NCBI GenBank assembly: GCA_019454415.1
Contig: JACFOI010000003.1
Location: 14,361-78,360, forward strand
Origin: Patescibacteria group bacterium
GTDB taxonomy: Bacteria; Patescibacteriota; Microgenomatia; UBA1400; PJMF01
DNA: 64,000 bases
Reading direction: 5' to 3'
This document shows, piece after piece, positions 10,547-56,091 of the stretch (position 1 is its first letter; each line of letters begins with the position of its first letter). Below the pieces are notes generated by a model. It was not told the DNA's origin and searched no databases. It saw nothing but the letters and a program-made list of their open reading frames with translations. The position numbers and the translations under genes were made by a program.

Positions 10547-10554
10547 GGGGAATC

Positions 10555-24306: not shown

Positions 24307-24370
24307 TTTTCTGCCTGACAACAATCCTATTCTTGGTCTCTAGTTGAACTGTGTGTACAATGGAAATCGA

Positions 24371-24940: not shown

Positions 24941-25595
24941 AAGTCGACAACTGACGACCATGCTCCTCCAGTTCTATGACCGGCCAATTGCCAAGGTTTC
25001 GCTGGAGCTGTTCTTCACCATCAGTGCGGTGATTATCTTTGCCGTGTTTGCGATCCGCCCGACTCTGCAAACCATGGGGACATTGATCAAAGAACTCGAA
25101 GACAAACGTGCCCTCAATCAGCGGCTCGCCCAGAAAGTCGCTGCGCTCTCTACTGCACAAACCCAGTATGAAGCAGTCAGAGAGAGGATCTCTCTGTTGG
25201 ATGAAGCCATTCCGCCGACCCCCCAGTTTGAGAAAGCCCTACTGATCATCGAAAAGTTGGCAAGTGAAAGCCAGCTGACCATCATTAACCTGCAAGCTAA
25301 GGAAGTCCCCAAAGAGCCTGATCCTGCAGAGGACGTTCCTTTTGAGCAAAAAGAACGAGCGACGCGATCGATCGTTCTGACTGTGACCGGTGACTATCCG
25401 ACCATTCGTCAGCTGATTGAAAATATTCAAGCTCAGCGGCGGGTATTGATCGTTGATACTGTGGTCTTCTCAGTCGTGGAACAACGGGGCAAGAAAGTTC
25501 TGCAAGCTGCCATCACTGTCAACGTACCGTTCTTCGCACCGGACTTAACTAAGCCGGCAGATCCGAGCCCGACACCTGATGACATAACACCATAA
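24927..25595 (+). CDS. PilO-like pilus assembly protein (TM + coiled coil)
   Basis: Cytoplasmic stub, a single TM (FFTISAVIIFAVFAI), a long coiled coil, and overlap with pilN end. Topology and size match PilO. Confidence 0.45.
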   Translation: MPTSRSRQLTTMLLQFYDRPIAKVSLELFFTISAVIIFAVFAIRPTLQTMGTLIKELEDKRALNQRLAQKVAALSTAQTQYEAVRERISLLDEAIPPTPQFEKALLIIEKLASESQLTIINLQAKEVPKEPDPAEDVPFEQKERATRSIVLTVTGDYPTIRQLIENIQAQRRVLIVDTVVFSVVEQRGKKVLQAAITVNVPFFAPDLTKPADPSPTPDDITP

Positions 25596-31591: not shown

Positions 31592-31603
31592 AATAGGTAT
31601 CGT

Positions 31604-33832
31604 ATGTTTACTGCTGTTGCAGAGAGAAAACAGCTTTTCTTTTTTACGCTTTTTTTCTCTGCGTGTTATTTCTTGCTATTGTTTTTGACAGAGGGGTTTT
31701 ACTCTCTATGGATTACACCAGCCCTCTTGCTATTGTACGGTGTTACTGCTTGGTACCTTCTCTTCAGAGAAAAGACAACAGTTCGTCAGCTTGATACTAG
31801 AGTCGCGATCGGCGGAGCAGTCGTGCTATTGGTACTACTGGCTCTTACTCCGTGGAGCCTCTCAATGCCAGCTAGCATCTCGCGGTGGACAACTTTAGCC
31901 CTGGGAGGTATCACTTTCCTCTTCTTTTTTACCACGCCTATTCTACAAAAACTTTCTCTCCGAACTCTTTTTACTAGCATGATTGTGCTCCATGCCCTCT
32001 TCGTGCTATTGGCACTCTTTGTGTTTGTTATTCCGGGATTGGGCGACTTCCTGCCCAGTGAGAATCTATTGAGCTTCACTGTCGGACACAATCATTCCTA
32101 CATTTTGTATCTGATCTCCCTTCCCCTGTGTTTATACTTCAGTACGCAGAGTAAAAGAAGTTGGGTGTGGCTTCTCTTAAGCGGTGTGTTCATCTTTGGA
32201 ATCATCCTCTCTTTCAGTCGGGTAGGACTCTTTTTACTCTTGATAGAGTTGATTTACTTTGTCGTCGTTCACCTTCACGGACAGCGCCTCGCACTTCTGA
32301 AACATCTGAGAACTCTGGCACTGTTATGCAGTATCTTGGTGATGATATATGGCGGATTGTTGTTCTTGCTCTCATTTTTTCCGCAACTGAGCTATGGCAC
32401 AAACTGTATTGTTCCTTTCTGGAAAGCCCAGTTCTGTAAAAACTTTGGAGCAGAGAGTCGTCCTCACTACTGGCAACAAGCACTGCAGGGTATTAAAACA
32501 AGTCCAATCTTGGGTACTGGAGGTGGAACGTTTAGCATCCTCTCTTTCCGCTACCGTCAGCATCAGGATGAGTACTCAGCCTACCCGCACAACGAGTATC
32601 TGCAGCTGATCGTGGAGTATGGCGTTGCAGGGTGGCTGATCGTGGCAGCGATAGCGATCAGCCTGCGCTTCATGTGGCAAAGGTGGCACCAAGTCTCCGA
32701 TCTGGCACGCCTGCTTATTTTTCTGAGTACGGTAACCGCGTTTGACTCGCTTTTCAACTTTAACTGGAGTTTTGTAGGCATCTTTGTGTTGGAGTCTCTT
32801 CTGTGGGCCGTGACGCTCAAAACAATCCACCTGGAGTTAGCTTCCAAAACTAAGAAAAGTAGCAGTCCACGCCTCATTTTTTTGGCTCTTCTGAGTGTAG
32901 GAGTGCCTCTCTGTTGGTTGTCTGCACGGTTTCTGTCAGCTGAGCTCCTGCTCAATCAACGCGACGAAGAGTATCTGCGACGTTTTCCTTATATTTCAGG
33001 GCGGGCCGAGCGAGCGTACTTTGACTCACAGACTTCTTCCGGCACTAAGGAGATGATTGAGGATCTGTATCGGAACAACGAAACCCTTGCTTGGCTGGCT
33101 GCGAGCAGGGCGGTAAGTCCACATACACAGCGGGATCTTTACCAGCGGTACTTAGAGCTCAATCCGATGAATCATGAGGCTCGGGTCCGTTTGATGATCG
33201 CTGCTACTCAAACCAATGATCCAAAGATTGTACTTACTCAACTGAACTGGCTATTGGATTTTTATTCTGTGACCGAAAAGCATACGATCAGGGACATTGA
33301 GCCCCAGTATTTGGAACGATTGATCAACTATGCGAACTCACTCAGTGCCGAAAATTCTGCTACGGCAGTGGACGTTACGCTGCTGGCATATCAATTTGAA
33401 CCTTGGCGGATAAATGAAGTGCAAACGATTTTTCTTCTTCAGCCACAAAAGTTTCCTCAGCAAGATGTTGCCAAGTTGCTCGATTCACTTGCTCCCTACC
33501 GACTCCAGTTTTATCTTAGTTCTCTCAATCCGTGGACCTGGGAGAAGATGCTTACTGCAGGCACCCATGAACGCTGGGCGGATATGAATCTCTATCTCAA
33601 ACTTATCTTGGTCTATACAGATTGGGATCCGCATGTTGTCTGGGCTACTATTTCTCGACTAATCACCAGTAAGTTAAAGGATCCTGAGTTCTCCGATTCT
33701 GCCCCAAAAAAGAAGGCTTTCTTAGATGCCTGGAGAAACAGTCTTGAAACCCTGGAAAAATTTGGTACTGTTGGCGATAAGCCTCTCGACACTAGTGGAT
33801 GGTCAGAGCAGATTGAGTCGTTTGCCCATTAA
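31604..33832 (+). CDS. Wzy_C (O-antigen ligase/PglL-like) polytopic membrane protein fused to C-terminal TPR-like domain
   Basis: Roughly 12 TMs. Signature loop YPHNEYLQLIVEYGVAGW. C-terminal roughly 300 aa soluble helical repeats (TPR-like). Confidence 0.75.
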   Translation: MFTAVAERKQLFFFTLFFSACYFLLLFLTEGFYSLWITPALLLLYGVTAWYLLFREKTTVRQLDTRVAIGGAVVLLVLLALTPWSLSMPASISRWTTLALGGITFLFFFTTPILQKLSLRTLFTSMIVLHALFVLLALFVFVIPGLGDFLPSENLLSFTVGHNHSYILYLISLPLCLYFSTQSKRSWVWLLLSGVFIFGIILSFSRVGLFLLLIELIYFVVVHLHGQRLALLKHLRTLALLCSILVMIYGGLLFLLSFFPQLSYGTNCIVPFWKAQFCKNFGAESRPHYWQQALQGIKTSPILGTGGGTFSILSFRYRQHQDEYSAYPHNEYLQLIVEYGVAGWLIVAAIAISLRFMWQRWHQVSDLARLLIFLSTVTAFDSLFNFNWSFVGIFVLESLLWAVTLKTIHLELASKTKKSSSPRLIFLALLSVGVPLCWLSARFLSAELLLNQRDEEYLRRFPYISGRAERAYFDSQTSSGTKEMIEDLYRNNETLAWLAASRAVSPHTQRDLYQRYLELNPMNHEARVRLMIAATQTNDPKIVLTQLNWLLDFYSVTEKHTIRDIEPQYLERLINYANSLSAENSATAVDVTLLAYQFEPWRINEVQTIFLLQPQKFPQQDVAKLLDSLAPYRLQFYLSSLNPWTWEKMLTAGTHERWADMNLYLKLILVYTDWDPHVVWATISRLITSKLKDPEFSDSAPKKKAFLDAWRNSLETLEKFGTVGDKPLDTSGWSEQIESFAH

Positions 33833-34730: not shown

Positions 34731-35846
34731 ATGAAGATATTAGCGATTCTCGAACGCAATCCCGGAGGAGAGTACGCGGCTGCTCGAGCCCTCTTACATG
34801 CGTTAGAAGATAACGACTGTCAAATCGAGCTCGAAGAGCTATCTCCGCTTCAAACAACCGGTCTTTTTTCATACTTTGGCTGGATTCTTTTTTCGGTCTT
34901 CCGATCAGCGAAGTTGGCGGCGCACTACAAGGAAGGACGAGATGTTTATACGACTACCTATGTAGCTGCCCTTGGCATTTTACTACTGCGTCCCTTCACC
35001 CATCAAAAGCTGAGCTTTCATTATCACGGGAGTCGGATTCCGGCACCAGCTGGGAGAGACTGGCCGGCACTTCGTAAGTTGACACAGTCAGTTAAACACA
35101 CTGTGGTTATGCAGTTACACCGGATTGTCTTTTCAAAAACTGACCTACTGATAGTCCCCTCTGCCAAAATCCTTGAACAACTTCACACCGAGTTCCCCAC
35201 ACTAACCGATCGGGTGGCTCTTATTCCGAATGGTGTTGATACTCAATTTTTCCAACCGATCTCAAATGCAGAAAGACAGTCACTCCGTAAGCAGTACCGC
35301 ATTCCCAACGGCTCGTTTGTCTGTTTAGTCGTTTCTCGGGTCAACGCCGAAAAAGGCTTGATTGAATCCGTAGAGCTTGTCCGGGCCATCCAACGTTTCA
35401 GCAGGCATCGAGTTTTGGCGGTTTTTGCAGTTCCCAGTCAAGGGAACGATAGCCAGTATCTGCACCAGTTCTTGACGCATCTGCGTTCTTCGGAGGTTCC
35501 GCATCTGATTTTTGAAGATCATCAACAGCTGAATCAGCTTTACCAACTCAGTAACTGTGTTTTAAGTTGTTCACGACGGGAGGTATTTCCCCTTGTTCTG
35601 CTGGAAGCTGCTGCCTGTGGTACCCCATACTTTGCTGAGCCGAACGGCGCAATAGAGTATTATCTTCAACAGATCGATCCACAGCTAGTTCTGCCTCAGT
35701 CTCAGCAAGCTGCTGCCCGAAGAGTATTGGAAGAGACTCATCAAAATAAACTATCGGAGAAACTACGCGCTTTCGCTGTTTCTCACACTTGGCAGGCAAG
35801 TGCTGTCCGCCTTATGCAAAAACTGGAACAGCTCACAATCAGATGA
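34731..35846 (+). CDS. GT4-family glycosyltransferase
   Basis: GT-B length. VFPLVLLEAAACGTPYFAEPNGA motif. Confidence 0.7.
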   Translation: MKILAILERNPGGEYAAARALLHALEDNDCQIELEELSPLQTTGLFSYFGWILFSVFRSAKLAAHYKEGRDVYTTTYVAALGILLLRPFTHQKLSFHYHGSRIPAPAGRDWPALRKLTQSVKHTVVMQLHRIVFSKTDLLIVPSAKILEQLHTEFPTLTDRVALIPNGVDTQFFQPISNAERQSLRKQYRIPNGSFVCLVVSRVNAEKGLIESVELVRAIQRFSRHRVLAVFAVPSQGNDSQYLHQFLTHLRSSEVPHLIFEDHQQLNQLYQLSNCVLSCSRREVFPLVLLEAAACGTPYFAEPNGAIEYYLQQIDPQLVLPQSQQAAARRVLEETHQNKLSEKLRAFAVSHTWQASAVRLMQKLEQLTIR

Positions 35847-38782
35847 ACAAAAAGACACCGCAACGCTTTACGATCAAGAACATATTCAGAAAAAGATACC
35901 TTGTACTCGTTGTGTTGATCGCAGGTCTGATTGCGATCTTAAGTCTGGCTCAACCACCGGACTGGTGGCAGTTCTCTTTGACCGAACAAATCACCCAACA
36001 ACCAATCTTCAACAAAAAAAATATCTTACTTGCCACCAATCACGGCACAGTACTGGCAGTCCATCAGCGAACTGGCCAAGTAATCTGGGAACTCAAACAT
36101 GAAAAAGATATTGCTTCACAGCCATTCCTGAAAAATGACAAAGTCTATACATCCTATATCGACGGGACAGTCGTCGCAATAAACCCTGATACTGGGGAGT
36201 TCATTTGGCAGTATAAGCTGCCTGATTCTAAGCAAGTACATACTGGCCTACTTTACTCAGAAACTACACTTATTTTCGGCGATTCCGGGGGAATGGTACA
36301 CGGCTTGTCCCTGTCTGACGGTCGCGAAAAATGGTCCCTTCAAACTCCTAATCCGGACTCTGTGGACCAACTCCTGACTCCCAATGGCATAGTTTGGTTT
36401 GGCTCCGTCATTATGGATCGCTCCAAGCTGTATGTTATCCGCACTCATGGCTACATTGCCGAGATCAATCCTAATACTGGCAAACTGATTTGGGAGCAGA
36501 AGGTTCCTGGAACAGTCATTGGAGAGCCGTTGCTTACTCGTTCCAGTCTTTTTATTAGTACGGATCAAGTTCCGCTTGTTTCTCTCTCCCGAAGAAACGG
36601 AGAACTCTACACTGCACCGGAACCGCAAAACGCAACAACTATCTTTTGTCAGGTGAGTTATACCCAAAAAGGGATTCTGACTGATCTGTCAGAACGGGTG
36701 GATCTCAATATTCCCAGTATCCTTCCAGTCTATGAACAAGGACGTGGTGAGCAGATTATTCAGGTCGACAAATCCGGGAAGGTAGTTTCTTACGATCGGG
36801 CAACGCTGCGTCCCAAATGGCAAGTTGAGCTCAACTATGAACCTAAACGTTGTTTCTTTGACCAAGAGTACGGGTTATACCTTGGGTCTGCTACCGGCAC
36901 ACTTACGAAAGTCGACGTCAGAGAACAAAGAGTGCGCTGGCAGCAGCAACTGCCAAGTCGCCTTCTGTCTATTTTCTCAGTCTATAGACACAAGTTTGTC
37001 GAAAGGGAAAGTCAGAAAAAGTACTACTACACCAACTTTGTGCTTGTCAGTGACGACCAGGAAAACTTCTTCAGGATTAATCCTCAGACTGGTGAAGTGA
37101 TGTGGAGTTTCAAGATTGACGGCTCAATGTACGTGCCGCCTGTTCTCCATTTCGGACATCTGTTTATTGTGACAACTAATGGAGGACTGTATCGCCTCGA
37201 TCCCTTCACCGGAAAACCGGACCTTGGTCGACTTAGTCCGAAAGTCCAAGCCACACCCGTCAGCCAAACAGTCAAAGAGGGTGAAGTTTTTGAGCTGAAG
37301 GTGAAGGCTCCCTCTGATCGCTACAGTAATCCCTATACGGCAGTGGACTTAAGCGCGGAGTTTATTAACGTAGAAAACCGCAAGATCCAAGTACATGGAT
37401 TTTATTATGACAAGGGCGAGTGGCGAGTACGCTTTAATCCTCCCACTGATGGCAGGTGGCAGTGGACTCTTCATTGGAGAGATCCGTTTCAAAACAAGGA
37501 GTTGAGTGGCAGCTTTACGAGTGAAAGAAGCTATAGCGTACTTCAAGCAGACCCACAGACAGCAAAGTGGCTGACTAAAGACGGTAAAACAATTTTCCCG
37601 GTTGCGGGCATAAACGACTGCTTTGCCGACCTCAATCAAGACGGGTCACCCCTGAATGACTGGTTTACCCAGGATGGCTCTCTGAAAATCGCCACCACTT
37701 CGGGAGAGATTCCGCAAAAACTTAGCTTTAATTCACAAGTCGTCCCGATGGAATCTTACTTAGACACCTACCGGAACGGCTTTAACTTGTTCCGCCAGAA
37801 TGTGAGTAACTGTTCTCCACCGCTTTACTATGCAGAGAACTTTTTGTACTCCAAGTATCTTTCGCATGAAGGAAAACAGTTCGACGCACTCAGTCAGCAG
37901 CTTTTCCAAAGAGGGTACTCAGTTTGGTTCACCATGTTCAGCTTCTCTTTACCCTTTGATGGAGGTGTTCGGTATCCCGACGAACGATTTGCTTTGGAAA
38001 ATTACATTAAGTACGTAGTAGCGAGGTTTGGTGCTTATGTGGATGTTTGGGAAATCAGCAACGAGGCAGTTGCCAGTGATGAATATGTCCGGACTATTGC
38101 CCAGTTGATCGAAAAGAATGACCCATATAAAAGACTCATCAGTGTCAGCTGGGAAAAACCCCAACTGGACAGCATTACTCTAATCGCTCCACACTGGTAC
38201 CAGTCTGAGAATGACAACGAGTCTGACCTAGCGACGATCACTCAAATTAATAAGTTCAGCGAGTATAAAAAACCTGTTGTATTCGGTGAACATGGGAACC
38301 AGGAAAGAAACTGGGATCCGAGTTCGGCACATCGGATGAGGGTACGGACGTGGACAGCATTCTTTCATCAAGCAGGATTGGTATTTTGGAATCAGTCCAG
38401 CACCAAGGACTACTATAATCCTACTTTCCAGAACAGTAATATTTACCTGGGTGAAGAGGAACGGAACTACCAGTCAGTCTTTCTTCAGTTGACTCAGGGA
38501 CTACCTGTTAGTCTTGTTCCCCAGCCAGATCCTCCCCGAGGTAGTGGAATCCGTCCCTATGCACTGAAGAATGAGACGCTGCTTCTGTACTATATTTTCA
38601 ACTCGAATGTGGAGGAAAACTCCACTACGGTTATTACTAATACCCTCGCCGGGAGAGCAAAAGCAGAATGGTTTGACACGAAGACTGGTGAGCTTCTCCG
38701 TGCTGAAGAAGTCGATCCTGAAGCAACGTTAACCTCCCCGCCATTTACTCGTGATATCTTTGTCAAGCTCTCAGTGCTTTAG
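35843..38782 (+). CDS. membrane-anchored PQQ-like beta-propeller fused to GH5-like (TIM-barrel) glycoside hydrolase domain
   Basis: ATGA overlap start. N-terminal TM. Repeated GxVxAxxxxTGxxxW PQQ-type blades (residues roughly 80-480). C-terminal VWEISNEA (GH5 NEP-like acid/base) and FGEHG segments. Confidence 0.55.
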   Translation: MNKKTPQRFTIKNIFRKRYLVLVVLIAGLIAILSLAQPPDWWQFSLTEQITQQPIFNKKNILLATNHGTVLAVHQRTGQVIWELKHEKDIASQPFLKNDKVYTSYIDGTVVAINPDTGEFIWQYKLPDSKQVHTGLLYSETTLIFGDSGGMVHGLSLSDGREKWSLQTPNPDSVDQLLTPNGIVWFGSVIMDRSKLYVIRTHGYIAEINPNTGKLIWEQKVPGTVIGEPLLTRSSLFISTDQVPLVSLSRRNGELYTAPEPQNATTIFCQVSYTQKGILTDLSERVDLNIPSILPVYEQGRGEQIIQVDKSGKVVSYDRATLRPKWQVELNYEPKRCFFDQEYGLYLGSATGTLTKVDVREQRVRWQQQLPSRLLSIFSVYRHKFVERESQKKYYYTNFVLVSDDQENFFRINPQTGEVMWSFKIDGSMYVPPVLHFGHLFIVTTNGGLYRLDPFTGKPDLGRLSPKVQATPVSQTVKEGEVFELKVKAPSDRYSNPYTAVDLSAEFINVENRKIQVHGFYYDKGEWRVRFNPPTDGRWQWTLHWRDPFQNKELSGSFTSERSYSVLQADPQTAKWLTKDGKTIFPVAGINDCFADLNQDGSPLNDWFTQDGSLKIATTSGEIPQKLSFNSQVVPMESYLDTYRNGFNLFRQNVSNCSPPLYYAENFLYSKYLSHEGKQFDALSQQLFQRGYSVWFTMFSFSLPFDGGVRYPDERFALENYIKYVVARFGAYVDVWEISNEAVASDEYVRTIAQLIEKNDPYKRLISVSWEKPQLDSITLIAPHWYQSENDNESDLATITQINKFSEYKKPVVFGEHGNQERNWDPSSAHRMRVRTWTAFFHQAGLVFWNQSSTKDYYNPTFQNSNIYLGEEERNYQSVFLQLTQGLPVSLVPQPDPPRGSGIRPYALKNETLLLYYIFNSNVEENSTTVITNTLAGRAKAEWFDTKTGELLRAEEVDPEATLTSPPFTRDIFVKLSVL

Positions 38783-39978
38783 CTTGAGCTTTTGTGAATG
38801 TGTTCAAAGTTCAGAATCCCCAAGAAGAGGGTTGAGAAAAATACCTGAATTCCCAGGATGACAAAGGTGATGCCGGGAATGAAAACTCTCATTGTACTTT
38901 CAGGATTAAGATCACCGAACCCTTGCTTAGACCACAAAAGCAGTGTCCATGAACAGAAAATAAGACCAACTGTGCAGATTGCGCCACCTAGCAGCATCAT
39001 CACTTCTAAGTTCGTTCTATCGAACCTCCCGACTACCGGGGGTGACTGAACTGGCAGGTGAATCCGTTTGGCGAAGACATCGATGCAGAGCGACCAGTGG
39101 AAAAGTTGGTAACCAATATTCAATAGGGCGCCCAGAACCAGCATTGTGTGAATGCCTAAAGAGATATGCCCCAGTTCCAGGCTTTCCAACACCATGAAAA
39201 TCAAAACCGCTAAAGAGAGAATCAGAATAATAAGGGCTGGGAAAAAAAAGATCCAGTTTGGTGCAAAAAGCATCAAGAACCGGAGATGTCTCCAGCCGTC
39301 TCGAAACGTTCTGATGTGCGACTTGCGCTTTCTACCGTCCTTTCGATAGACGACCGGGACTTCTTGAATGTTGAGATGGAGTAGTGCTGCCCGAACAATC
39401 ATTTCAGAGGCAAACTCCATTCCCACGCACTGCAAATTCAGGCTTTTTACTACTGATTTACGCAGAGCACGAATGCCGGAGTGGTAATCTCCCAGATGAG
39501 TTCCAAAAAAGAGATTAGCCGTCCAGGTCAAAATTGGGTTGCCAATATAATAATGCAGCCAAGGCATTGCCCCTTTTTGTACCCCTCCTTTGAATCTGTT
39601 ACCGATAACCAAATCTGCGCCAGCTTGCAGCTTTTTTAAGAAAGGAGTGAGATGTCTAAGATCGTAGCTGAGATCCGAATCCGCAATGATGATGTACTCA
39701 CCCTTTGCCGCCACGAGTCCTCTATAGATTGCTGCTCCGTACCCACGTTTGGACTCTGTCACGACCCGAGCTCCGGCCTTTTTTGCAACTGCAATTGACT
39801 CATCGGAACTGCCGTTGTCAACGACGATGACTTCTCCTCTTTTTCTCTCCAGCCATCGTTTTGCTTCCTTCACACACTTACCCACTGTTGCCGCTTCGTT
39901 GAGGCATGGAAGAACAATGCTAACCGTAAGTGCAGTCGGTACTTTAGCAGACACTCGTGTTCGTAGTTTTCTTGACAA
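38779..39978 (-). CDS. GT2 polyprenol-phosphate sugar synthase (DPM1/GtrB/ArnC-like) with C-terminal TM domain
   Basis: VSIVLPCLNEAATVGKCV...VVDNGSSDES...ADSDLSYD GT-A motifs, then about 4 TMs. Confidence 0.7.
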   Translation of the reverse strand: MSRKLRTRVSAKVPTALTVSIVLPCLNEAATVGKCVKEAKRWLERKRGEVIVVDNGSSDESIAVAKKAGARVVTESKRGYGAAIYRGLVAAKGEYIIIADSDLSYDLRHLTPFLKKLQAGADLVIGNRFKGGVQKGAMPWLHYYIGNPILTWTANLFFGTHLGDYHSGIRALRKSVVKSLNLQCVGMEFASEMIVRAALLHLNIQEVPVVYRKDGRKRKSHIRTFRDGWRHLRFLMLFAPNWIFFFPALIILILSLAVLIFMVLESLELGHISLGIHTMLVLGALLNIGYQLFHWSLCIDVFAKRIHLPVQSPPVVGRFDRTNLEVMMLLGGAICTVGLIFCSWTLLLWSKQGFGDLNPESTMRVFIPGITFVILGIQVFFSTLFLGILNFEHIHKSSS

Positions 39979-40014
39979 AGGTATTCCTATATAACTATAA
40001 GAAAGGGGATCAAA

Positions 40015-41811
40015 TTGTTCTCTTCTTTTGTTTTATATCGTTCTTATACCAAAATGCAACAAATAGTGACTGTAGCAAGAAGTGTTTTGAGCTGGGTTTG
40101 GAAAAATGGCCTCTTTCTGTCTCTGGCAGTAGCAGCTGCTGCACTGAAACTTTGGTTGCTTGATAGTCAGGATCTCACCTATCAGGGTTACAGCTTTCAT
40201 GATGAAATGCTGTTTGTTCGTCTGGCCCACAATATTATCGAAAGTGGGTGGCTGGGACCTTACGATAACTTAACCCTCGCTAAGGGGACTTTCCTTCCGC
40301 TTTTTTTAGTATTTAACTGGGCGCTCGGACTTCCCTTGTTGGTGACACAACAGCTATTGTACATTGCGGCTGTCACAGCAATCTCTTGGGCTATTCGCCC
40401 ACTGATTAAAAACCGTTTCTTATTACTCTTCTTGTTTATCATCTTACTGTTCCAACCGGCTTCCTTTGAGGGAGACTCTACTGCCAGAATTTTACGGTCT
40501 TCCATAGGAACCAGTTTGTCACTCTTTATCTTTGCCGGTTTTTTCAGACTTTGTCTGACTAAAATTCGTCAAGTGGAAGCAATTTGGTTGGGGAGCCTGA
40601 CTGGATTAGCTCTTGGACTGTTTTGGATAAATCGTGAAGATAACTTATGGATTCTGCCGGCTGTCGCCATTCTATTGGGTGGAAAGTGGGTGATAAGTTT
40701 TTTCCGCCATCAAATAAATAAACCTCTCTTTACTTTCAGTTCAGCCGTACTGTGCTGGGCAGTATTGCCTGTTTTTCTTGTTTCTCTCGTGAATGTGCAC
40801 TTCTATCAAATTTTCACAGTAACTGAGTTCCAGCACTTTGCATTCCCCGAAGCCTACGGGGCACTGTTGCGGGTTCGTCCGGCGCAGCGTTATCGGTATA
40901 TTCCGGTTACCCGCAGTACGCGTCAGATACTGTACAAGCTGAGTCCGGCTTTTAAGGAACTAGAAATTCCTTTGGAAGATCACTATGCCTCGGGATGGGC
41001 AGAAAATAGTGTTGACCTAACTGGTTTTAAGCCGCGGGAGAAACAGGTTGCCGGTGGATGGTGGATGTGGGCACTGCGGGATGCAGTCAATGCGGCCGGC
41101 TACGGTTCGTCCGGTGCTACGGCAGCTGCTTACTATATCCGGCTAACAAACGAGATAAATGCACTTTGTGACGACGGAACGCTGATCTGCACACCGCCTC
41201 ATAAAGTGATGACCCCTGTTCTTTCTGTCGATGATTACCGGCGGATCATTCCCGGCTTCTTTGAGTTGTGGATCGCGTATTTTTCGCGGCAACATCTCTC
41301 TGTTTACAACAGTCACTCTTCCGGAACAGAACTCGACGAGTATCTTTTCCGCAGTCTCACCCACGAGAAACTCTACCACAACGAAGACTATTATTTTGAT
41401 GATTGGAACCAGGCGACCCTGAAACAAAAACAGCTCTATGTCTTAGAGCAGCTGACGAGAAAGTACCAAACGTATGCTTTGCCCTTTGTTCTTCTCGGTA
41501 TTTTAAGCTATATCTACATTGCTATCAGGCGAGACCAGTATGCATGGGTGCTGCTTGCTATTCCCGCTTCAACTCTTTTTCTTAACTTAGTAGTAACCAT
41601 CATTCACTTCACCTCTTTTTGGGCATTCGGGAACGTCTACTTAAGTCCAATGTACCCATTATTTTTGATTTTCTCTTTCCTGAGTATTCTACGGGTACCC
41701 AGTCATTTACGCAGAGAGTGGGAGTTCTCACCGTTCAATAAAACCAAACCGCGGATCCTGAAGAAGGGTTTTAGTGATCTCGTCCGCGTAGATCCGGTGA
41801 GCCAGAACTGA
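40015..41811 (+). CDS. GT-C fold membrane glycosyltransferase (PMT_2/ArnT-like)
   Basis: Polytopic. First-loop acidic motif FHDEMLFVRLAHNI (DE motif of the GT39/GT83 family). Large C-terminal periplasmic domain. Confidence 0.55.
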   Translation: MFSSFVLYRSYTKMQQIVTVARSVLSWVWKNGLFLSLAVAAAALKLWLLDSQDLTYQGYSFHDEMLFVRLAHNIIESGWLGPYDNLTLAKGTFLPLFLVFNWALGLPLLVTQQLLYIAAVTAISWAIRPLIKNRFLLLFLFIILLFQPASFEGDSTARILRSSIGTSLSLFIFAGFFRLCLTKIRQVEAIWLGSLTGLALGLFWINREDNLWILPAVAILLGGKWVISFFRHQINKPLFTFSSAVLCWAVLPVFLVSLVNVHFYQIFTVTEFQHFAFPEAYGALLRVRPAQRYRYIPVTRSTRQILYKLSPAFKELEIPLEDHYASGWAENSVDLTGFKPREKQVAGGWWMWALRDAVNAAGYGSSGATAAAYYIRLTNEINALCDDGTLICTPPHKVMTPVLSVDDYRRIIPGFFELWIAYFSRQHLSVYNSHSSGTELDEYLFRSLTHEKLYHNEDYYFDDWNQATLKQKQLYVLEQLTRKYQTYALPFVLLGILSYIYIAIRRDQYAWVLLAIPASTLFLNLVVTIIHFTSFWAFGNVYLSPMYPLFLIFSFLSILRVPSHLRREWEFSPFNKTKPRILKKGFSDLVRVDPVSQN

Positions 41812-42690
41812 GGGATGAGTTTCACTCTTCGACACAAACATTTTTTGCTGCTCAGGAGTATTGTCGGGCGCAGGCATTTTGAAGGTGAGAACAGGAAAAC
41901 CAGCTTTTTTGTACACCTCAGTCATCGCCAAGCTGTCCGGATTCGAGGTTAAGAGTGAATCTAATGAAACGTACAACGCGTTTTTCTTGGGGAAGTCCGG
42001 AAGCAGCTTCTGCACAACGCACCAGTTTTTGGTATCTGCTTCTAGAGAGCGCTTGACTCGCTGCGGATATACTACTGTTACATCAATCTCTGCCCAATCT
42101 TCAGAGACATCCCAAACCGTTTCTCCCTCGCACTGCTCTAGCTCTTCTTCACCCTCAGGCCCGTACCAGGAGTATTTCTTCAGGAATGCATCGTTATGGA
42201 CGATGCCAAAGATTGAAAGATCGGCCTTCTGTCCGGTCCGCAAGAATGCTTTATACTTCCGCCACTGATCGACAATGTTATTTCCTTCAATCGCGAAAAC
42301 GAGTACTTTCGTAGGACGATACTCGTTTAGTTTCTTCTCCAAAAGATCGGCGAACCGTTCCTGCTCCCGGACACCCACACCCCAAACATACGAATCTCCA
42401 TAGAGGGCAATTGTGAACTCATTGGTGGCCTGTGTCCCTAAAATGCGAGGATCTTTCTGTTCATAGATAAACTCTTCCAGCGCGAGCATGTCCTGAGCCC
42501 GGGTACCATATCCTGCTAATCGGTGATAGGTACTATCCTCTACCACCCAGTAACCATGTGCCTCTGATTTTTGAAAAAAGAACTTATCAAAAAAGTAGTG
42601 TTCAGCCACCCAATAACAGGCTGCCAGGGTAAAACAGACACTGACAGACAACATACAAAAAAGCGTAAATAGTTTAAGCGATCTTGGCAT
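41728..42690 (-). CDS. SGNH/GDSL-family hydrolase (esterase/acyltransferase-like), N-terminally anchored
   Basis: GDSYVWGVG block I. Paralog of 58467-59567. Confidence 0.65.
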   Translation of the reverse strand: MPRSLKLFTLFCMLSVSVCFTLAACYWVAEHYFFDKFFFQKSEAHGYWVVEDSTYHRLAGYGTRAQDMLALEEFIYEQKDPRILGTQATNEFTIALYGDSYVWGVGVREQERFADLLEKKLNEYRPTKVLVFAIEGNNIVDQWRKYKAFLRTGQKADLSIFGIVHNDAFLKKYSWYGPEGEEELEQCEGETVWDVSEDWAEIDVTVVYPQRVKRSLEADTKNWCVVQKLLPDFPKKNALYVSLDSLLTSNPDSLAMTEVYKKAGFPVLTFKMPAPDNTPEQQKMFVSKSETHPSVLAHRIYADEITKTLLQDPRFGFIER

Positions 42691-42698
42691 AGATGATG

Positions 42699-43511
42699 TT
42701 ACAAACCTTCAATATCATCAATTGAAGGATAAATGTTGTAACGCTTTTGGTTAATAGGGATCTGGGAGCCAATATGAACTCTATAGTTATCGAACATAAC
42801 AACTTCGTTCTCATTAACCACACGTACTGTCAGATCGGCCCAGATCACGACATCCTTGTATATAGGATGTTTCCTGATGTGTAAGTTCCCGGAGCTATCC
42901 TGAGTAATTTGCGTTGCTGGACTCACCTCTACCTTAGTAATTTTGACTAGCTGCTTGCCCAGTGAGTTAGTAACTGTATCTCCCACGTGGATCTCCTTTG
43001 CCAAGGTGGGAGCAATACTCCCCAAAAAGGTTTTGACATGAATCACCTTCTCCGTTGCATTTACTTGAGCAGTCCCGGGGACATCAGTCACGATTCCGTC
43101 AAACGTAACATCATGAAGATTGAACCTCATGGGAGTTCCATACATTAAGTTTTTCCCGCGGGCAGAGTACAGTTTAGTCCGGGTGTCGTAGGTGGCCCGG
43201 AGCCGGATATCCAAATAAACAACTTTGTTCTCCGGAGTAATTGAGTAGCTTTCTACATTTACAATCTCGGCGATTGTCCGTCCTACCACGTCCCTTTCTA
43301 GATCACCGACATGGAATCGCCATGAGTAATCATTTCTGGGGGTGTCATGTGCAGTCAGTACTTCCTGATTCGTCACTTTAAAACGAATAGTAATGTAGGT
43401 GGACTTCCGATAGAAGAAAAAGAAGAAACCGACCAGCACTACTACTGCTGCACTGAAGATGAGTGTGTCTACCCAGTGTAGCTTGCGTAACTTTTTCAGA
43501 ATTTTTTTCAT
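42699..43511 (-). CDS. N-terminally anchored uncharacterized protein (paralog of 52371-53252)
   Basis: Basic N-terminus + TM (AAVVVLVGFFFFFYRK) + beta-rich domain. Clear paralogy to 52371-53252. Confidence 0.45.
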   Translation of the reverse strand: MKKILKKLRKLHWVDTLIFSAAVVVLVGFFFFFYRKSTYITIRFKVTNQEVLTAHDTPRNDYSWRFHVGDLERDVVGRTIAEIVNVESYSITPENKVVYLDIRLRATYDTRTKLYSARGKNLMYGTPMRFNLHDVTFDGIVTDVPGTAQVNATEKVIHVKTFLGSIAPTLAKEIHVGDTVTNSLGKQLVKITKVEVSPATQITQDSSGNLHIRKHPIYKDVVIWADLTVRVVNENEVVMFDNYRVHIGSQIPINQKRYNIYPSIDDIEGL

Positions 43512-45064
43512 GCACTCCTCTTTCCTGCAGACAGATAATACCAGAACGCACCAAAACCAAGAACTAAACCCAAAAATGGGAACTCAACAATACCAATATG
43601 CGGTAAGAGTGTCCAGAAGACGAGGGCGACAAGCAGTCCACTGAGAAAGGTCAGTCTGTAGAACTGGGGTTGGCCCCTTTGAGCTGGGTTGACGATGCAG
43701 TACCTGGCTAACCAGAACAACGGTAACAAAAAAATCAGCAGTCCGATCAGTCCGATCTCCATCCACAACTGGATATATGCCAGGTGAACGACTGCGGGAA
43801 AGACGGTCATCACCCCATCCGGGAAAAGCCGTTGAAGGACATACTCATTGGTGCCTATTCCGTATCCGATAAATGGGTTGGCAATGATCGCCTCTCTAGC
43901 TTCATTGACCATCCTGACCCGGATAGCTAAACCTGCACCTTGATAACCGGCATTCACACTCAACAAAATTCTGGGAATGATCCCAAATGCACTTAATGCA
44001 AATGCAACGACTCCATAGGCTAAGATTCTTCGGCGGCCGATTTTGCGTAACACTACCAAGATTCTTTTCTTATATACCACTCCGCAGAGGAAAAGTAGCA
44101 AGACTGCTCCGATCAATACTGATCGGCTCTGTGTAAGTAAAACCACAAACAGACCAGCCAGACCCGTTCCGATAAGTGGGACTGATTTTTTTTCGATACC
44201 ATAGGGCAAAATCACCGACGACAAGAGTGCCGAAACAAAGGCTAACTGATTGTGGAACATGAAGGTTCCCATCACTCGGAACACTGCATTGTTTTCATCT
44301 AGTCCTGTGGCAAAGCTGCCCGAGCTATTTGCCTCAAACGGAAGTCCGGCACTTCGTTGAAACCACAGCTGCAGCACGCTGACAAAAAACTGTGTGCAGA
44401 TCATAGCCGTGAGTGTCAGAACAAAAAATGAAAGAAACTTTGGGTACTTGACCAGCCCAAAGCAGATTCCCAGCGCCACAAAGTACATCATGCTGTACTG
44501 GAAAAGCCAAACTATCGACAGGGCTGGGAACGGAGAATACACCGTAATGCCATATAGGCAGTAACCAACAAAAAGCAACCATACCAATGTAATTGCACCC
44601 ATTACCACTAACAGTCGCTGGGGGATCTTCCGGAAGTTTTTCAGTAGATCTCTTATCAGAGCTGCAGCTGCCAGCACAAAAAAGAAGCTGGCCATGTGGA
44701 AAAAATAAGCAATGGAGTAACCCTCATAGTATTGAGGTTCCAAAATTGCATTCCCTCGAATTACTTCTACGTCATATCCCTTATTAGGGTGAACAAACTG
44801 CAAGGTAAATATATAGGTCAGAAAAAAGCCCAAGAAAACACTTTTCAGATTTCTTGATAGTAGAATTGCTACAATAAGATATAGTAGGAAAAACTGTCGA
44901 ATGCCGTCGATCAGACCAGTAGAAGACACAGCCACTGTGAGTGCGAACAGAACAGGAGTAAAAACGAATGGCCGATCCCAAATGCTATGTACTCGTTCGA
45001 GGCAGGAACGCCCTGCCGTACGTAGAACGCTGTTTGCGGTCAATACTTTGCCAAACATACTCAA
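43508..45064 (-). CDS. Wzy_C-like (O-antigen polymerase/ligase family) polytopic membrane protein
   Basis: About 12 TMs. Loop AVVHLAYIQLWMEIGLIG similar to the Wzy_C signature. 5' end overlaps divergent GT2, so the start is uncertain. Confidence 0.55.
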   Translation of the reverse strand: MSMFGKVLTANSVLRTAGRSCLERVHSIWDRPFVFTPVLFALTVAVSSTGLIDGIRQFFLLYLIVAILLSRNLKSVFLGFFLTYIFTLQFVHPNKGYDVEVIRGNAILEPQYYEGYSIAYFFHMASFFFVLAAAALIRDLLKNFRKIPQRLLVVMGAITLVWLLFVGYCLYGITVYSPFPALSIVWLFQYSMMYFVALGICFGLVKYPKFLSFFVLTLTAMICTQFFVSVLQLWFQRSAGLPFEANSSGSFATGLDENNAVFRVMGTFMFHNQLAFVSALLSSVILPYGIEKKSVPLIGTGLAGLFVVLLTQSRSVLIGAVLLLFLCGVVYKKRILVVLRKIGRRRILAYGVVAFALSAFGIIPRILLSVNAGYQGAGLAIRVRMVNEAREAIIANPFIGYGIGTNEYVLQRLFPDGVMTVFPAVVHLAYIQLWMEIGLIGLLIFLLPLFWLARYCIVNPAQRGQPQFYRLTFLSGLLVALVFWTLLPHIGIVEFPFLGLVLGFGAFWYYLSAGKRSA

Positions 45065-45786
45065 ATATAGTCATTCTATTTGTTGACGACGCCTCTGAAT
45101 ATAACAGAGAAACGAAAAAAAAGATCAACAAACAACTAGAAAGACATATTGTTGTATGGCGGAAAGAACGCTACTACTCGGTGCGCAACGCATACGAGAT
45201 GATTCACACTTACTGTGATGATCCGGAGGGGATCGTCATTAACTTAGATGCTGATGATTGGTTTTCAACCCCCAGATCGGTGGAGAGGCTGGTACGGTTT
45301 TACAAAAAAGAAAAATGTTTGTTCAGCTACGGCGACTGTTATGTGTGGTCGGGCCAAGATAGTGGCCATACTGAGTGGTCCGACGAAAACTTTGCCAAGC
45401 TCAACTTTTCTTCGTTGCCACTCGCTTCCAAATACATGGAAGCATGCAACATTTCCTATACTAAAAAAGTGAATACCCGTCGGAACTTTCGAGATATCCC
45501 ATTTGTGGTACTGCATCCCCGAAGTTGGAAAGTAAAAGCATTTCGCCTAATTCCTAAGACAGCATTTCAGCGGCCAGACGGAACCTGGTTACACTTTTGT
45601 GAAGACCAAGCAATCTTTTTTTCCCTGTTCGAGATGTTCCCAGAGAGATATGCCGTCTGCCCTCTTCCACTGTCGGTCTACAACCAAGCAAACCCGGCGG
45701 CTGACATTAAGCGTTATCGCCTAGAAACTCTTCGTGATGAAATAGAGATCCGGCGGAAACCCAAGTATGCAACGATTTCGCTATAA
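44968..45786 (+). CDS. GT2-family glycosyltransferase
   Basis: CYVLVRGRNALPYVERCLRSILCQTYSNIVILFVDDASEYN (GT-A N-terminus with DD motif). Confidence 0.6.
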   Translation: MADPKCYVLVRGRNALPYVERCLRSILCQTYSNIVILFVDDASEYNRETKKKINKQLERHIVVWRKERYYSVRNAYEMIHTYCDDPEGIVINLDADDWFSTPRSVERLVRFYKKEKCLFSYGDCYVWSGQDSGHTEWSDENFAKLNFSSLPLASKYMEACNISYTKKVNTRRNFRDIPFVVLHPRSWKVKAFRLIPKTAFQRPDGTWLHFCEDQAIFFSLFEMFPERYAVCPLPLSVYNQANPAADIKRYRLETLRDEIEIRRKPKYATISL

Positions 45787-47347
45787 CATTCACTGCTCCA
45801 AGCTTCTCAGTCTGCCAGTACTGGGCAACCTACTTTATCGGATGCAGCTTCTGATGGTGAAAGCAGGTCTCTCCACACAGTATTGGATCTCCCGAAAGGA
45901 TGTTCCCCTGCGCGGACAGCTTCTGACCGAGATCGAAAAACGGGCAGTGATCATGTTTTGTTCGGCGTGGCAGCTCGGTCGCCAATTGGAAAATTTACAT
46001 GGAAAGTATGTCTTTGATTACACAGGACCTCATCCCAAACACTTGTCTCTGACTGAGCTTTATAACCTGGAATGGGCGTTAATTCTGGCCCAAAGCGTTA
46101 CTTCCCAGAGCATCAAGAAACTGGGAAACCTTCTCCCCCAAAGCTATCCTTTTTGGAGGCCGTATATTCTTTCAGTCCATCAGCAGCTGGACGTTCAGTG
46201 TGACTTTGTCCAACAGACCCTCAATGAACTTTTAGCCCAGGGTAATACAGTCATTCTGTTTAGCCATGTTCAACAGCCTGATACAGTGAAACAAGAACTT
46301 CGTAAGCATCGTCGTCTGATCTATTTCTCGAGTGTCTGTCCGTTGCGTACCTCTCTCTTGCCATTTCGACTGCAGAAGGATGTCCAGTCAGTGTGGGAGA
46401 GTATTGTTCGTCGAACCTTGTATCAGTATGCGCCACCTCAGCATCATCCGGTCTTGTGGTGTTTTGACCCTGATGACGCGAATATCTTACACTTTTGCCC
46501 TCCCCAGACCACGATTATTTTTGATTGTGTTGACTACTACACCAGTACCGACCAAGAGTTAAATAAGAGGGTCACTCGTGATCAACGCCGCTTGATAGAC
46601 GCCGCTGACCTGATGTTTGTGAACTCCAGAACTTTAAAGAAGCTCCACTCTAAACAACGAATGGATAACTTGTTGGTTCCTCAAGGCTTTGACCAACAAA
46701 CTTTTTTTGTGAATAGCAAAGGCAGGCGTTCAAAAACGTCGATTCGTTTCTTCCAGAAACTTAATCGCACCAAAACAAAGTATCGAGCAGTTGTGTCCTT
46801 CGCCGGGGCACTTTCCTATCGAGTCGACTATCCGATGCTCATAGATCTGATCAAACACTGTCCCAAGTATTTGTTTTGTTTACCGGAGACTGAACTTTCT
46901 TGGCCGACTGAAGATCAAGCTGTAGCTTGGCAGCAGCAGCTTCAGCACCTTAGGAAGCTACCGAATGTACTCTGGTTTCCCCGGCTGCAACGCAGTGAAG
47001 TGCGGGCACTTTTGGAAAAAACTACGGTCGGGTTGATCCCTTATGACACTTCCTTTGAGTTAAATCGTTACTGTTTCCCGATGAAGTTCTTCGAGTATCT
47101 GAGCATGGGCTTGCCTGTCCTTTCTACACCTATTCACGAGTTAAAGTACTATCCTCAGTTTGTCTCACTTGGAAAGAATAGTCTCGAACTACGCAAAAAG
47201 TTACACGTTTTAGTAAGAAAGCGAGTGACAAGTCAAACAAAAGAGGCCATGAAACAGTTGTGTTTAGAACACACATGGCAGAAAAAGATTGACGCAATTC
47301 TCTCTGCTATTGATCTCTATCAACGGCGGTACCACCGATTTGTGTAG
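45767..47347 (+). CDS. GT-B glycosyltransferase (GT4-like C-terminal domain), paralog of 49616-50872
   Basis: YCFPMKFFEYLSMGLPVLSTPIHELKY aligns with CCFPMKIMEYFFAQRPVVSTPIPSLLDY in the paralog. Confidence 0.55.
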   Translation: MQRFRYNIHCSKLLSLPVLGNLLYRMQLLMVKAGLSTQYWISRKDVPLRGQLLTEIEKRAVIMFCSAWQLGRQLENLHGKYVFDYTGPHPKHLSLTELYNLEWALILAQSVTSQSIKKLGNLLPQSYPFWRPYILSVHQQLDVQCDFVQQTLNELLAQGNTVILFSHVQQPDTVKQELRKHRRLIYFSSVCPLRTSLLPFRLQKDVQSVWESIVRRTLYQYAPPQHHPVLWCFDPDDANILHFCPPQTTIIFDCVDYYTSTDQELNKRVTRDQRRLIDAADLMFVNSRTLKKLHSKQRMDNLLVPQGFDQQTFFVNSKGRRSKTSIRFFQKLNRTKTKYRAVVSFAGALSYRVDYPMLIDLIKHCPKYLFCLPETELSWPTEDQAVAWQQQLQHLRKLPNVLWFPRLQRSEVRALLEKTTVGLIPYDTSFELNRYCFPMKFFEYLSMGLPVLSTPIHELKYYPQFVSLGKNSLELRKKLHVLVRKRVTSQTKEAMKQLCLEHTWQKKIDAILSAIDLYQRRYHRFV

Positions 47348-56061: not shown

Positions 56062-56091
56062 TTCCCCATCCTCATGATACATTCAGAGCCG

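Follow-up and report, generated by a model that had tools for sequence, protein, structure and literature searches.

A general three-component model of extracytoplasmic glycosylation has been described, for example for the Citrobacter ORF15/ORF14/ORF12 system with GT136 (PMC11127046). In Gtr systems, O-antigen glucosylation involves a flippase (GtrA), an Und-P-Glc synthase (GtrB) and a GT-C transferase (GtrX), and the ArnC/ArnT pair combines an Und-P-L-Ara4FN synthase with a lipid A Ara4N transferase (CAZy GT83, PMT_2). Dolichol-type systems, in which Dol-P-Man synthase or AglJ goes with PMT or AglB, occur in archaea and eukaryotes and have an actinobacterial version in Ppm1 and Pmt. GtrB and ArnC carry two C-terminal transmembrane (TM) helices. 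In mycobacteria, PpgS/Rv3779 is a polyprenyl-P-GalNAc synthase plus a GT-C that adds GalN to arabinogalactan, and Firmicutes have CsbB/GtcA/YfhO. Here we compare with these systems a 64-kb stretch of DNA (the window, at its full length) from a Patescibacteria-like bacterium, in which a membrane-anchored GT2 and two GT-C-fold proteins probably form a polyprenyl-phosphate-sugar glycosylation module inside a large Wzy-type surface-polysaccharide locus. Searches of the literature on DUF4330, on GT-C in Patescibacteria and on GT-C in Opitutaceae found nothing. As a kind of system the module is already known; its novelty lies in a GT-C family that has no sequence model.

Results

The genes at issue and their surroundings are as follows:

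22615-63718 (no strand): surface-glycan locus of ~40 kb, from Pfam scans
35789-38782, plus strand: membrane-anchored protein, 997 aa, convergent with GT2-TM, with a PQQ-like beta-propeller, DUF5060 and an apiosidase-like glycosidase domain
38779-39978, minus strand: GT2-TM, 399 aa, with a cytoplasmic GT-A domain at the N-terminus and four TM helices at the C-terminus
39979-40014 (no strand): divergent intergenic spacer, 36 bp, between GT2-TM and M598
40015-41811, plus strand: M598, 598 aa, GT-C-fold membrane protein of a family without Pfam or NCBIfam model
41728-42690, minus strand: membrane-anchored GDSL/SGNH-like protein, 320 aa (Lipase_GDSL_2 5.2e-6, below cut-off)
53268-54881, minus strand: M537, 537 aa, GT-C-fold membrane protein with a Cys-containing C-terminal outer domain, from a divergent branch of the PMT_2 clan (ArnT/PMT-like)

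The open reading frames of GT2-TM, M598 and M537 are real at the coordinates that the initial annotation had given them, and GT2-TM and M598 indeed diverge. Around them, the ~40-kb locus encodes a MurJ-like flippase, a Bac_transf initiating transferase, four Wzy_C proteins, several GT4 and GT2 proteins, methyltransferases, WecG, PIG-L, a carbamoyltransferase and an NDP-sugar epimerase; it shows synteny in loci L001, L007, L008, L009, L087 and L088 and probably supplies the acceptor glycan. Next to the pair, the propeller protein (PQQ_2 3.7e-42, DUF5060 2.2e-16 and Apiosidase 9e-4 against Pfam) is syntenic in L001 and L009 only. The GDSL/SGNH-like gene, whose product has one N-terminal TM segment, converges on M598 with an 84-bp overlap at the M598 end and is kept as a neighbour in the closest relatives, with synteny in L001 and L009. 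No tRNA genes were found in the window.

GT2-TM matches Pfam PF00535 (E 6.5e-28), and its hydropathy profile places four hydrophobic segments within residues 243-388. The GT-A domain carries one motif of note:

39673-39681, minus strand: DSD (DxD-type) motif of GT2-TM, residues 100-102, from an HMMER alignment with DPMS

In that alignment the DSD lines up with the DAD motif of Pyrococcus furiosus DPMS, which is also the closest PDB match (5mlz, 3.3e-15) ahead of ArnC (~3e-8). Top NCBIfam matches are AglJ (1.6e-40), Dol-P-hexose transferase (9e-29) and PpgS (2.5e-22), yet GT2-TM stays far under every NCBIfam equivalog cut-off (139 versus 325, 100 versus 375 and 79 versus 370 bits, respectively). 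Such sub-cut-off matches to lipid-phosphate sugar synthases would support the class but not a specific enzyme or sugar, and we predict GT2-TM to be a polyprenyl-phosphate monosaccharide synthase of the DPMS/AglJ/GtrB/ArnC type. With the DPMS and ArnC matches and the four C-terminal segments, its initial description as a DPM1/GtrB/ArnC-like GT2 with C-terminal TMs is supported. Precomputed annotation has PF26629 (GT2_TM_C) on GT2-TM orthologues in L001, L002, L004 and L005; a search with our local Pfam copy matched it neither in GT2-TM itself nor in two of these annotated orthologues.

M598 displays ~10 hydrophobic segments, as does M537, and for both proteins AF2 secondary structure agrees with hydropathy. 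Its layout comprises ~7 TM helices, a helical outer domain of ~225 aa (~residues 260-485) and three C-terminal TM helices, and the motif of interest lies near the N-terminus:

40195-40215, plus strand: FHDEMLF motif of M598, residues 61-67, first extracytoplasmic loop, with the putative catalytic acidic pair D63/E64

FHDEMLF comes after TM1 (residues 31-49), and we infer from a K/R-rich N-terminus (four such residues) that its loop is on the outer side of the membrane. An alignment of 63 family members shows an invariant D63, with D at position 64 in no less than 90%. In structure M598 resembles solved GT-C enzymes, among which AglB, ArnT and Pmt4 tie (17.9, 17.8 and 17.7). The fold is thereby evident and M598 is likely to act as a GT-C enzyme. 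Sequence models tell less: no Pfam entry, PMT_2 (PF13231) included, matched even at E≤10, and an hhalign comparison with 68 proteins, including 52 from PMT_2, gave a non-significant probability of 11.9%, with FHDEMLF sitting in register on the PMT_2 DE motif. Through an intermediate family there is a weak bridge to PMT_2 (hhalign 78.8%). Hence, of a 'PMT_2/ArnT-like GT-C with FHDEMLF', as M598 had been described, the fold stands and the PMT_2 sequence signal does not. The family occurs in ~225 reference species, where its annotation reads only "hypothetical protein". Homologues of ~1000 aa were considered as GT2 plus GT-C fusions (399 plus 598 aa is ~1000); they lack a GT2 domain and this idea was dropped.

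Reading the sequence before M598 by eye, we noticed a promoter-like site, TTGACA (39972-39977) and, 18 nt on, TATAAG (39996-40001), followed by a Shine-Dalgarno-like run, AAAGGGGA (40002-40009), upstream of the TTG start. These may be the start signals of M598. The promoter-like site is missing from the list of our consensus scanner because its final -10 base is G, and sigma-70 and terminator scans gave counts at or under shuffle expectation and were uninformative.

M537 carries its acidic pair in a comparable motif:

54726-54746, minus strand: WLDEQFS motif of M537, residues 46-52, from the family alignment, with D48/E49 invariant

Further on follow DVHPG (residues 70-74) and LRMYG (residues 143-147), and together these motifs agree with the PMT_2-set consensus LWxDExYS ... 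DxHPPLYY ... RMY. A K/R-rich N-terminus again suggests that D48/E49 lie outside the membrane. The predicted structure, of moderate confidence (pLDDT 77), matches Pmt4 best. While the direct Pfam PMT_2 score is only 8 bits (E 4.2; cut-off 26.1), the M537 family profile matches thousands of proteins with E-values down to 1e-20, 52 of the 68 sampled being PF13231 members, and hhalign of the family against the PMT_2 set reaches 100%. Judged by its profile, M537 is a PMT_2-clan homologue beyond reach of the current Pfam model. ArnT and PMTs, characterised relatives of its family, use polyprenyl-P-monosaccharides. M537 had been taken for a second GT-C copy; it does have the GT-C fold, and as a paralogue of M598 it was rejected (BLASTP E 0.77, hhalign 3%).

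Direct classification of both proteins with Pfam, NCBIfam and PDB sequences, single-sequence or profile-based, yielded nothing usable. The GT39 models (PMT, MIR, PMT_4TMC) in Pfam are unmatched in M598 and M537 alike; likeness to Pmt1, Pmt2 and Pmt4 is structural only. In the profile classification proposed at the outset, M537 comes to lie in the PMT_2 clan and M598 belongs to no model. Polytopic within the range of 7-13 TM helices, similar to GT-C enzymes in 3D and equipped with conserved acidic residues in the first loop, both proteins may be considered members of the GT-C superfamily.

We compared 78 reference-genome loci that have an M598-family gene plus flanks, from Patescibacteria, Verrucomicrobiota, Bacillota (Cohnella), Planctomycetota, Thermodesulfobacteriota and Gammaproteobacteria. 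A GT2-TM orthologue is present in the flank in 62/78, its match spanning the TM region in 57, and in 54/78 a full-length orthologue lies no more than 300 bp from an M598-family ORF, on the same strand in 52 of these 54; in L002 and L004 stop and start codons overlap. An NDP-sugar epimerase is a frequent extra member of the cassette, and in L006 a DedA/VTT protein goes with GT2 and the M598 homologue. The flanks of the other 16/78, some of them full 6-kb flanks, have no GT2-TM orthologue, and in L003 the M598-family gene is solitary. Epimerases were tried as a guide to sugar identity and rejected, being only generic GalE/RmlB-like SDRs below all cut-offs. Because GT2 and M598 are adjacent in 54/78 genomes, the initially proposed two-step pathway, polyprenyl-P-sugar synthesis followed by GT-C transfer, finds support; the same conserved adjacency to a DPMS/ArnC-like GT2 lends indirect support to the prediction that M598 uses a lipid-phosphate-linked donor. 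Also recurrent is the layout of one synthase with several GT-Cs that had been seen in the window: two M598-family genes occur in 17/85 loci, and up to 47/78 also contain a PMT_2-like family. The latter count stems from single-linkage clustering, which swept in some shorter ORFs as well, probably those of epimerases.

A GtrA-like flippase was looked for among the small membrane ORFs, as proposed at the outset, and was not found: large genes apart, the part of the window from 22 to 64 kb has no ORF of 50-220 aa with several TM segments, and the locus has no linked flippase of GtrA, SMR or MATE type. Nor did flank clustering of the 78 related loci bring up a recurrent small membrane partner, the DedA/VTT gene being confined to L006. 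The sole flippase-like gene is the MurJ-like one, 16 kb away.

Discussion

To our minds, outer-face decoration of the locus polysaccharide is the likeliest role of these GT2 and GT-C proteins. By homology, GT2-TM would act on the cytoplasmic side of the membrane, where its GT-A domain and DSD motif would serve, as in Dol-P-Man synthase, AglJ, GtrB and ArnC, to load a polyprenyl phosphate (undecaprenyl or another one) with a single monosaccharide taken from a nucleotide sugar. The lipid-linked sugar would then be flipped to the outer face, a step to which no gene is assigned, and M598, a GT-C-fold protein whose first outer loop has an invariant Asp, may pass it to an extracytoplasmic acceptor. 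Most probably this acceptor is the polysaccharide of the surrounding locus, with the sugar put on as a side-branch after flipping or polymerisation. M537, from another family (the PMT_2 clan), may catalyse a further transfer at the outer face within this locus and might draw on the lipid-linked donor that M598 uses.

There is an appreciable chance, roughly one we would put at a third, that M598 uses the sugar of the adjacent GT2-TM and M537 another polyprenyl-P-sugar, whose synthase is encoded elsewhere, or an Und-PP-linked unit, in which case the idea of one donor for two acceptors would be wrong although both proteins are GT-Cs. M537 and GT2-TM are 13 kb apart, and the conserved immediate neighbours of M537 are not the synthase but a GT4 and a soluble TuaG/PglI-like GT2, in addition to WecG, PIG-L and the carbamoyltransferase. 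M537 and M598 have no sequence kinship, and our view covers 64 kb of the genome. Against this, none of the other GT2s in the window resembles lipid-sugar synthases when compared with them, M537 and the GT2-M598 pair share one syntenic locus wherever both are visible, and loci of other phyla place M598-type as well as PMT_2-type GT-Cs around single GT2-TM genes.

Less likely is that proteins rather than polysaccharide are the targets. GT2-TM would then make a polyprenyl-P-hexose, and M537 and/or M598 would act in PMT/Pmt-like fashion on Ser/Thr of secreted or surface proteins such as pilins, S-layer or the neighbouring propeller protein.

Slightly less probable still is that the M598 family founds a new GT-C (CAZy) family and, with its dedicated four-TM DPMS-like synthase, the epimerase and PMT_2-like GT-Cs, constitutes a self-contained, widely transferred module that uses one polyprenyl-P-sugar to build a glycan outside the cytoplasm instead of merely decorating an existing one. 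By analogy this would resemble mycobacterial arabinan synthesis by Emb and Aft enzymes; the TM domain of the synthase might itself do the flipping, which would account for the absent flippase gene, and Patescibacteria would have recruited the module into the ~40-kb locus, which could then matter for their epibiotic lifestyle.

We consider it improbable that M598 and/or M537 handle Und-PP-oligosaccharides as oligosaccharyltransferases, ligases or polymerases in the way of AglB/PglB/STT3, with GT2-TM an ordinary glycan-building transferase. Among the structural matches of M598, AglB stands level with ArnT and Pmt4. Neither GT-C matches Pfam STT3 or contains WWDxG, which speaks against the unrelated oligosaccharyltransferase class (STT3/AglB) named at the outset as one example of a finding that would overturn the proposal. 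GT2-TM, in turn, has the membrane-anchored architecture of DPMS/ArnC, unlike a soluble repeat-unit transferase, its close linkage to M598 across phyla is characteristic of a synthase paired with a GT-C, and the four Wzy_C proteins are already there for polymerase or ligase roles. That M598 and M537 are inactive GT-C-fold scaffolds or substrate-binding subunits, comparable to PIG-U and GAB1 in GPI transamidase, is very improbable: behind TM1, where GT-Cs canonically have their catalytic site, both families conserve invariant acidic residues, catalytic GT-Cs score higher, and the gene for a donor synthase is a conserved neighbour, which points to catalysis.

Decoration of the locus polysaccharide, our preferred reading, brings little conceptual shift, the mechanism of a lipid-linked sugar synthase with a GT-C transferase being familiar. 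Of use is a confident annotation of the M598 family, throughout its ~225 reference species, as predicted GT-C transferases with a dedicated GT2-TM partner. The GT2-M598 pair is also a clean target in the search for a donor sugar and a linkage not described before, and possibly for a CAZy family of its own. Finally, a small-genome, Patescibacteria-like organism spends ~40 kb on an elaborate surface glycan and what appear to be two outer-face modification enzymes, an investment that bears on surface presentation by Patescibacteria episymbionts.

Comparison with known systems

With Gtr and the three-component systems, the locus shares a membrane-bound GT2-type synthase beside a GT-C, in or near a polysaccharide locus, and the predicted logic of loading a sugar onto polyprenyl-P, flipping it and transferring it outside. 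It differs from Gtr in having no linked GtrA, SMR or MATE flippase gene, in the four C-terminal TM segments of GT2-TM (as in archaeal DPMS and AglJ), in an M598 that falls outside every existing GT-C sequence model, and in a Patescibacteria-like host instead of an enterobacterium or phage. Compared to ArnC/ArnT, M598 has no detectable PMT_2 signal, M537 combines its sub-threshold PMT_2 score with a distinct Cys-rich C-terminal domain, and the 64-kb window contains neither ArnA, ArnB or ArnD genes nor any sign of lipid A.

The dolichol-type systems come close in that GT2-TM is nearest to P. furiosus DPMS in the PDB and to AglJ in NCBIfam, and Pmt4 is the top structural match of M537 and among the three best for M598; they are set apart by equivalog cut-offs that GT2-TM misses widely, by PMT, MIR and PMT_4TMC domains that are absent here, and by the setting of our genes in a Wzy-dependent polysaccharide locus instead of an operon for protein glycosylation. 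PpgS, third among the NCBIfam matches of GT2-TM, is likewise a relative at a distance from its cut-off, and the YfhO Pfam signal of the CsbB/GtcA/YfhO system is absent here. In purpose, though, PpgS/Rv3779 and CsbB/GtcA/YfhO resemble the module we propose, both using a polyprenyl-P-monosaccharide to decorate cell-wall polysaccharide.

A synthase of the polyprenyl-phosphate class

The initial annotation had proposed a two-step polyprenol-phosphate-sugar system, and its three ORFs are found exactly where it had placed them:

38779-39978, minus strand: GT2, predicted polyprenyl-phosphate monosaccharide synthase (399 aa)
40015-41811, plus strand: M598, candidate GT-C transferase (598 aa), divergent from GT2 across a 36-bp gap
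40195-40215: FHDEMLF motif, M598 residues 61-67
53268-54881, minus strand: M537, the other candidate GT-C transferase (537 aa)

GT2 combines a Glycos_transf_2 match (Pfam, residues 20-178, E 6.5e-28) with four hydrophobic segments that hydropathy locates within residues 243-388, and the solved structures closest to it are Pyrococcus furiosus Dol-P-Man synthase (5mlz, 3.3e-15) and then several ArnC structures (~3e-8, residues 18-310 aligned). Its DSD (residues 100-102) aligns to the DAD motif of DPMS. The top NCBIfam models are AglJ (1.6e-40), haloarchaeal dolichyl-phosphate hexose transferase (9e-29) and the polyprenyl-P-GalNAc synthase PpgS (2.5e-22), with all three scores far short of the equivalog cut-offs. 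Domain, TM segments, DPMS/ArnC/AglJ relatives and DSD motif therefore place GT2 among the membrane-anchored polyprenyl-phosphate glycosyltransferases, an assignment that is well supported at the level of class rather than specific sugar and bears out the initial reading. GT2_TM_C stands as a precomputed Pfam annotation on GT2 orthologues of related loci and was not reproduced with our local Pfam copy. Since none of the remaining GT2s in the window (30581-31591, 44968-45786, 55978-56967) resembles this class, the 64 kb hold one obvious synthase, as had been claimed.

Two GT-C proteins of unrelated sequence

M598 has no Pfam match even at E<=10 and none in NCBIfam, and PDB sequence searches with M598 alone and with a 63-sequence profile returned nothing. 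A word-indexed search gave 104 homologues, none with a Pfam domain, which are either unnamed or labelled 'hypothetical protein' or 'uncharacterized membrane protein'; those of ~1000 aa were considered as GT2 fusions, which they are not. In the family alignment D63 is invariant and D64 nearly so (window M598 has E there), both in a motif HDDxLFVRLA directly past TM1; P148, N260, S310, W352 and R355 are invariant too. By an AlphaFold2 model from this alignment, which is very confident (pLDDT 93.3, pTM 0.90), M598 adopts a GT-C fold, and its acidic residues occupy the canonical position. Because AglB, ArnT and Pmt4 nearly tie as matches (9-14% identity), M598 can be assigned to no existing family.

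M537 itself gives a negligible Pfam signal (PMT_2, E 4.2, 8 bits, cut-off 26.1). An initial search yielded just 11 homologues, in whose alignment W46, D48 and E49 are invariant (PLWLDEQYS), with DVHPG (70-74), RMY (144-146) and a C-terminal CC...W.C pattern, and its AlphaFold2 model, likewise of GT-C fold, is moderately confident (pLDDT 77.4, pTM 0.80). Exhaustive HMMER searching with the family profile retrieved 52 full-length members (E<=1e-30) and a halo of thousands matching the N-terminal 200-330 positions only (E 1e-20 to 1e-14). Among 68 halo proteins sampled, 52 carry PMT_2 and nine PMT (Pfam), and hhalign matches the M537 family to this set at 100% probability; on this profile evidence M537 is therefore placed in the PMT_2 clan, as a divergent branch. 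The same 68-protein set (52 bona fide PMT_2) compared with M598 reached a non-significant 11.9% in profile-profile alignment, in which HDD falls on the PMT_2 DE motif with helices in register. The PMT_2/ArnT-like label thus fits M537 and not M598, the bearer of the FHDEMLF loop, and 'second GT-C copy' is a misnomer, as the two are unrelated in sequence. A rival view sees the GT-C-fold proteins as non-catalytic; both families conserve acidic motifs.

Linkage of GT2 and M598 across genomes

Scanning one genome per species yielded 225 M598 relatives, and 78 loci (L-numbers below) were fetched. The nearest relative (Patescibacteria MAG UBA924, 45% identity) has flanks syntenic with the window neighbours, namely the propeller protein, GT2, GDSL, DUF4330 and Wzy_C genes. 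Other hosts are mostly Opitutaceae and further Verrucomicrobiota, the remainder being Saccharibacteria, Dojkabacteria, Cohnella, Tepidisphaerales, Thermodesulfobacteriota, Desulfobacterales and Thiomargarita/Parabeggiatoa. A GT2 orthologue (E<1e-30, typically 40-44% identity) lies in the flanks of 62/78 loci, with the match reaching through the TM region in 57/78; in 54/78 it is within 300 bp of an M598-family ORF, and on the same strand in 52 of these 54. Stop and start codons overlap within the cassettes of L002 and L004. This linkage across phyla is the strongest evidence that GT2 would supply the donor of M598. An NDP-sugar epimerase/dehydratase, often present in the cassette, is of too general a type to reveal which sugar is used.

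Two M598-family genes occur in 17/85 loci, typically on either side of a single GT2. When the flanks were clustered, another recurrent membrane family (~700-790 aa) emerged, present in up to 47 loci, an upper figure as the single-linkage cluster also took in some shorter, probably epimerase, ORFs. No Pfam model matches this family; hhalign makes it PMT_2-like (98%, E 2e-13), with a weak bridge to M598 (79%, E 1.6e-5). Given these recurrent multi-GT-C loci, the window's set of GT2, M598-type and PMT_2-type proteins echoes a layout in other phyla, which lends indirect support to the proposal that one donor may serve both M598 and M537. Against this proposal, and in line with a separate donor for M537, the latter lies 13 kb from GT2 and keeps other immediate neighbours (GT4, soluble GT2, WecG, PIG-L, carbamoyltransferase). 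The genome itself is seen over 64 kb only.

Seven Opitutaceae loci (L004, L012, L016, L024, L050, L072, L075) are self-contained GT-C cassettes. Each combines a single GT2-TM and an epimerase with one or two M598-family proteins of 1000-1300 aa and between one and three PMT_2-like proteins (~700-790 aa) that bear a WEDYYITYR-type motif. None of their membrane proteins has a Pfam match, and the cassettes are not obviously within polysaccharide loci.

The surrounding glycan locus

A single large glycan locus, syntenic in all M537-bearing genomes, fills the rest of the window from ~22.6 kb on. It encodes a MurJ-like flippase, a Bac_transf initiating transferase, four Wzy_C proteins, at least six GT4-type (Glycos_transf_1 family) and three soluble GT2 glycosyltransferases, methyltransferases, WecG/TagA, a PIG-L deacetylase, a carbamoyltransferase and an epimerase.

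31481-33832 (plus), 43508-45064 (minus), 47307-49616 (minus), 50834-52387 (plus): Wzy_C paralogues, O-antigen ligase/polymerase-like
42699-43511 (minus), 52371-53252 (plus): single-TM DUF4330-type proteins (E 3e-14, and a weak 0.037)
35789-38782 (plus): 997-aa membrane-anchored protein with PQQ-like beta-propeller, DUF5060 and apiosidase-like (GH140-type) domain
59601-61442, 58467-59567, 57733-58470, 56972-57736 (all minus): carbamoyltransferase, GDSL-like, PIG-L deacetylase, WecG/TagA
24344-25595: PilN- and PilO-like genes, just within the start of the locus

Four Wzy_C genes are unusually many for one glycan locus; two encode ~518 aa and two ~770-780 aa, and they are conserved in syntenic relatives. 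Directly behind each ~518-aa gene, on its strand and with overlapping stop/start, comes a DUF4330-type gene; each such pair is convergent with one of the two GT-C genes, and the pairing is kept in L001, L007, L008, L009, L087 and L088. A literature search on DUF4330 found nothing. The propeller protein is convergent with GT2, a position it keeps only in L001 and L009, the closest Patescibacteria-like relatives; as a partner it could process glycan or bind the acceptor. The carbamoyltransferase-to-WecG/TagA block adjoins the M537 segment and is conserved, with a tiny DUF5989 ORF in the relatives' version; the block suggests that the glycan contains an amino-sugar that is carbamoylated and de-N-acetylated.

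The upstream part (1-22000) carries housekeeping genes: a class II ribonucleotide reductase (2601-4811), LepA (19753-21453) and, on either side of a GH18 chitinase-like gene (10543-11790), two class A PBPs (8078-10546, 11883-14375). Two large ORFs on the minus strand (898-2523, 541 aa; 16812-18707, 631 aa) have no Pfam match at E<=1e-4, and no tRNA genes occur across the 64 kb.

Discussion

In the scenario we favour, GT2 would load a monosaccharide onto polyprenyl phosphate in the cytoplasm, the lipid-linked sugar would be flipped, and M598, possibly also M537, would transfer it outside the membrane, onto the glycan that the locus builds. Rival scenarios see a protein O-glycosylation system, here within a polysaccharide locus, or Und-PP-oligosaccharides as donors, here beside a synthase of the polyprenyl-phosphate class. 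As for flipping in our favoured scenario, a small GtrA-like protein, for which a check had been suggested, is absent from the locus, and none recurs in related loci by flank clustering. In an Azospirillaceae MAG (L006, 4509-7884) a short soluble GT2, a DedA/VTT-domain protein and an M598 homologue stand in a row. As DedA proteins have been linked to the translocation of polyprenyl phosphate, the arrangement may point to the missing flippase or a recycling step.

The initial annotation thus had the biology essentially right, apart from family label and 'copy' relationship, and left the absent flippase unmentioned. The proposed steps match the three-component paradigm (reviewed in PMC11127046), and the GT2-GT-C system is of a known kind. 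What is new is that M598 represents a sizeable GT-C family, unrecognised by the Pfam and NCBIfam copies searched and coupled to a four-TM DPMS-like synthase, and that M537 would extend the PMT_2 clan.
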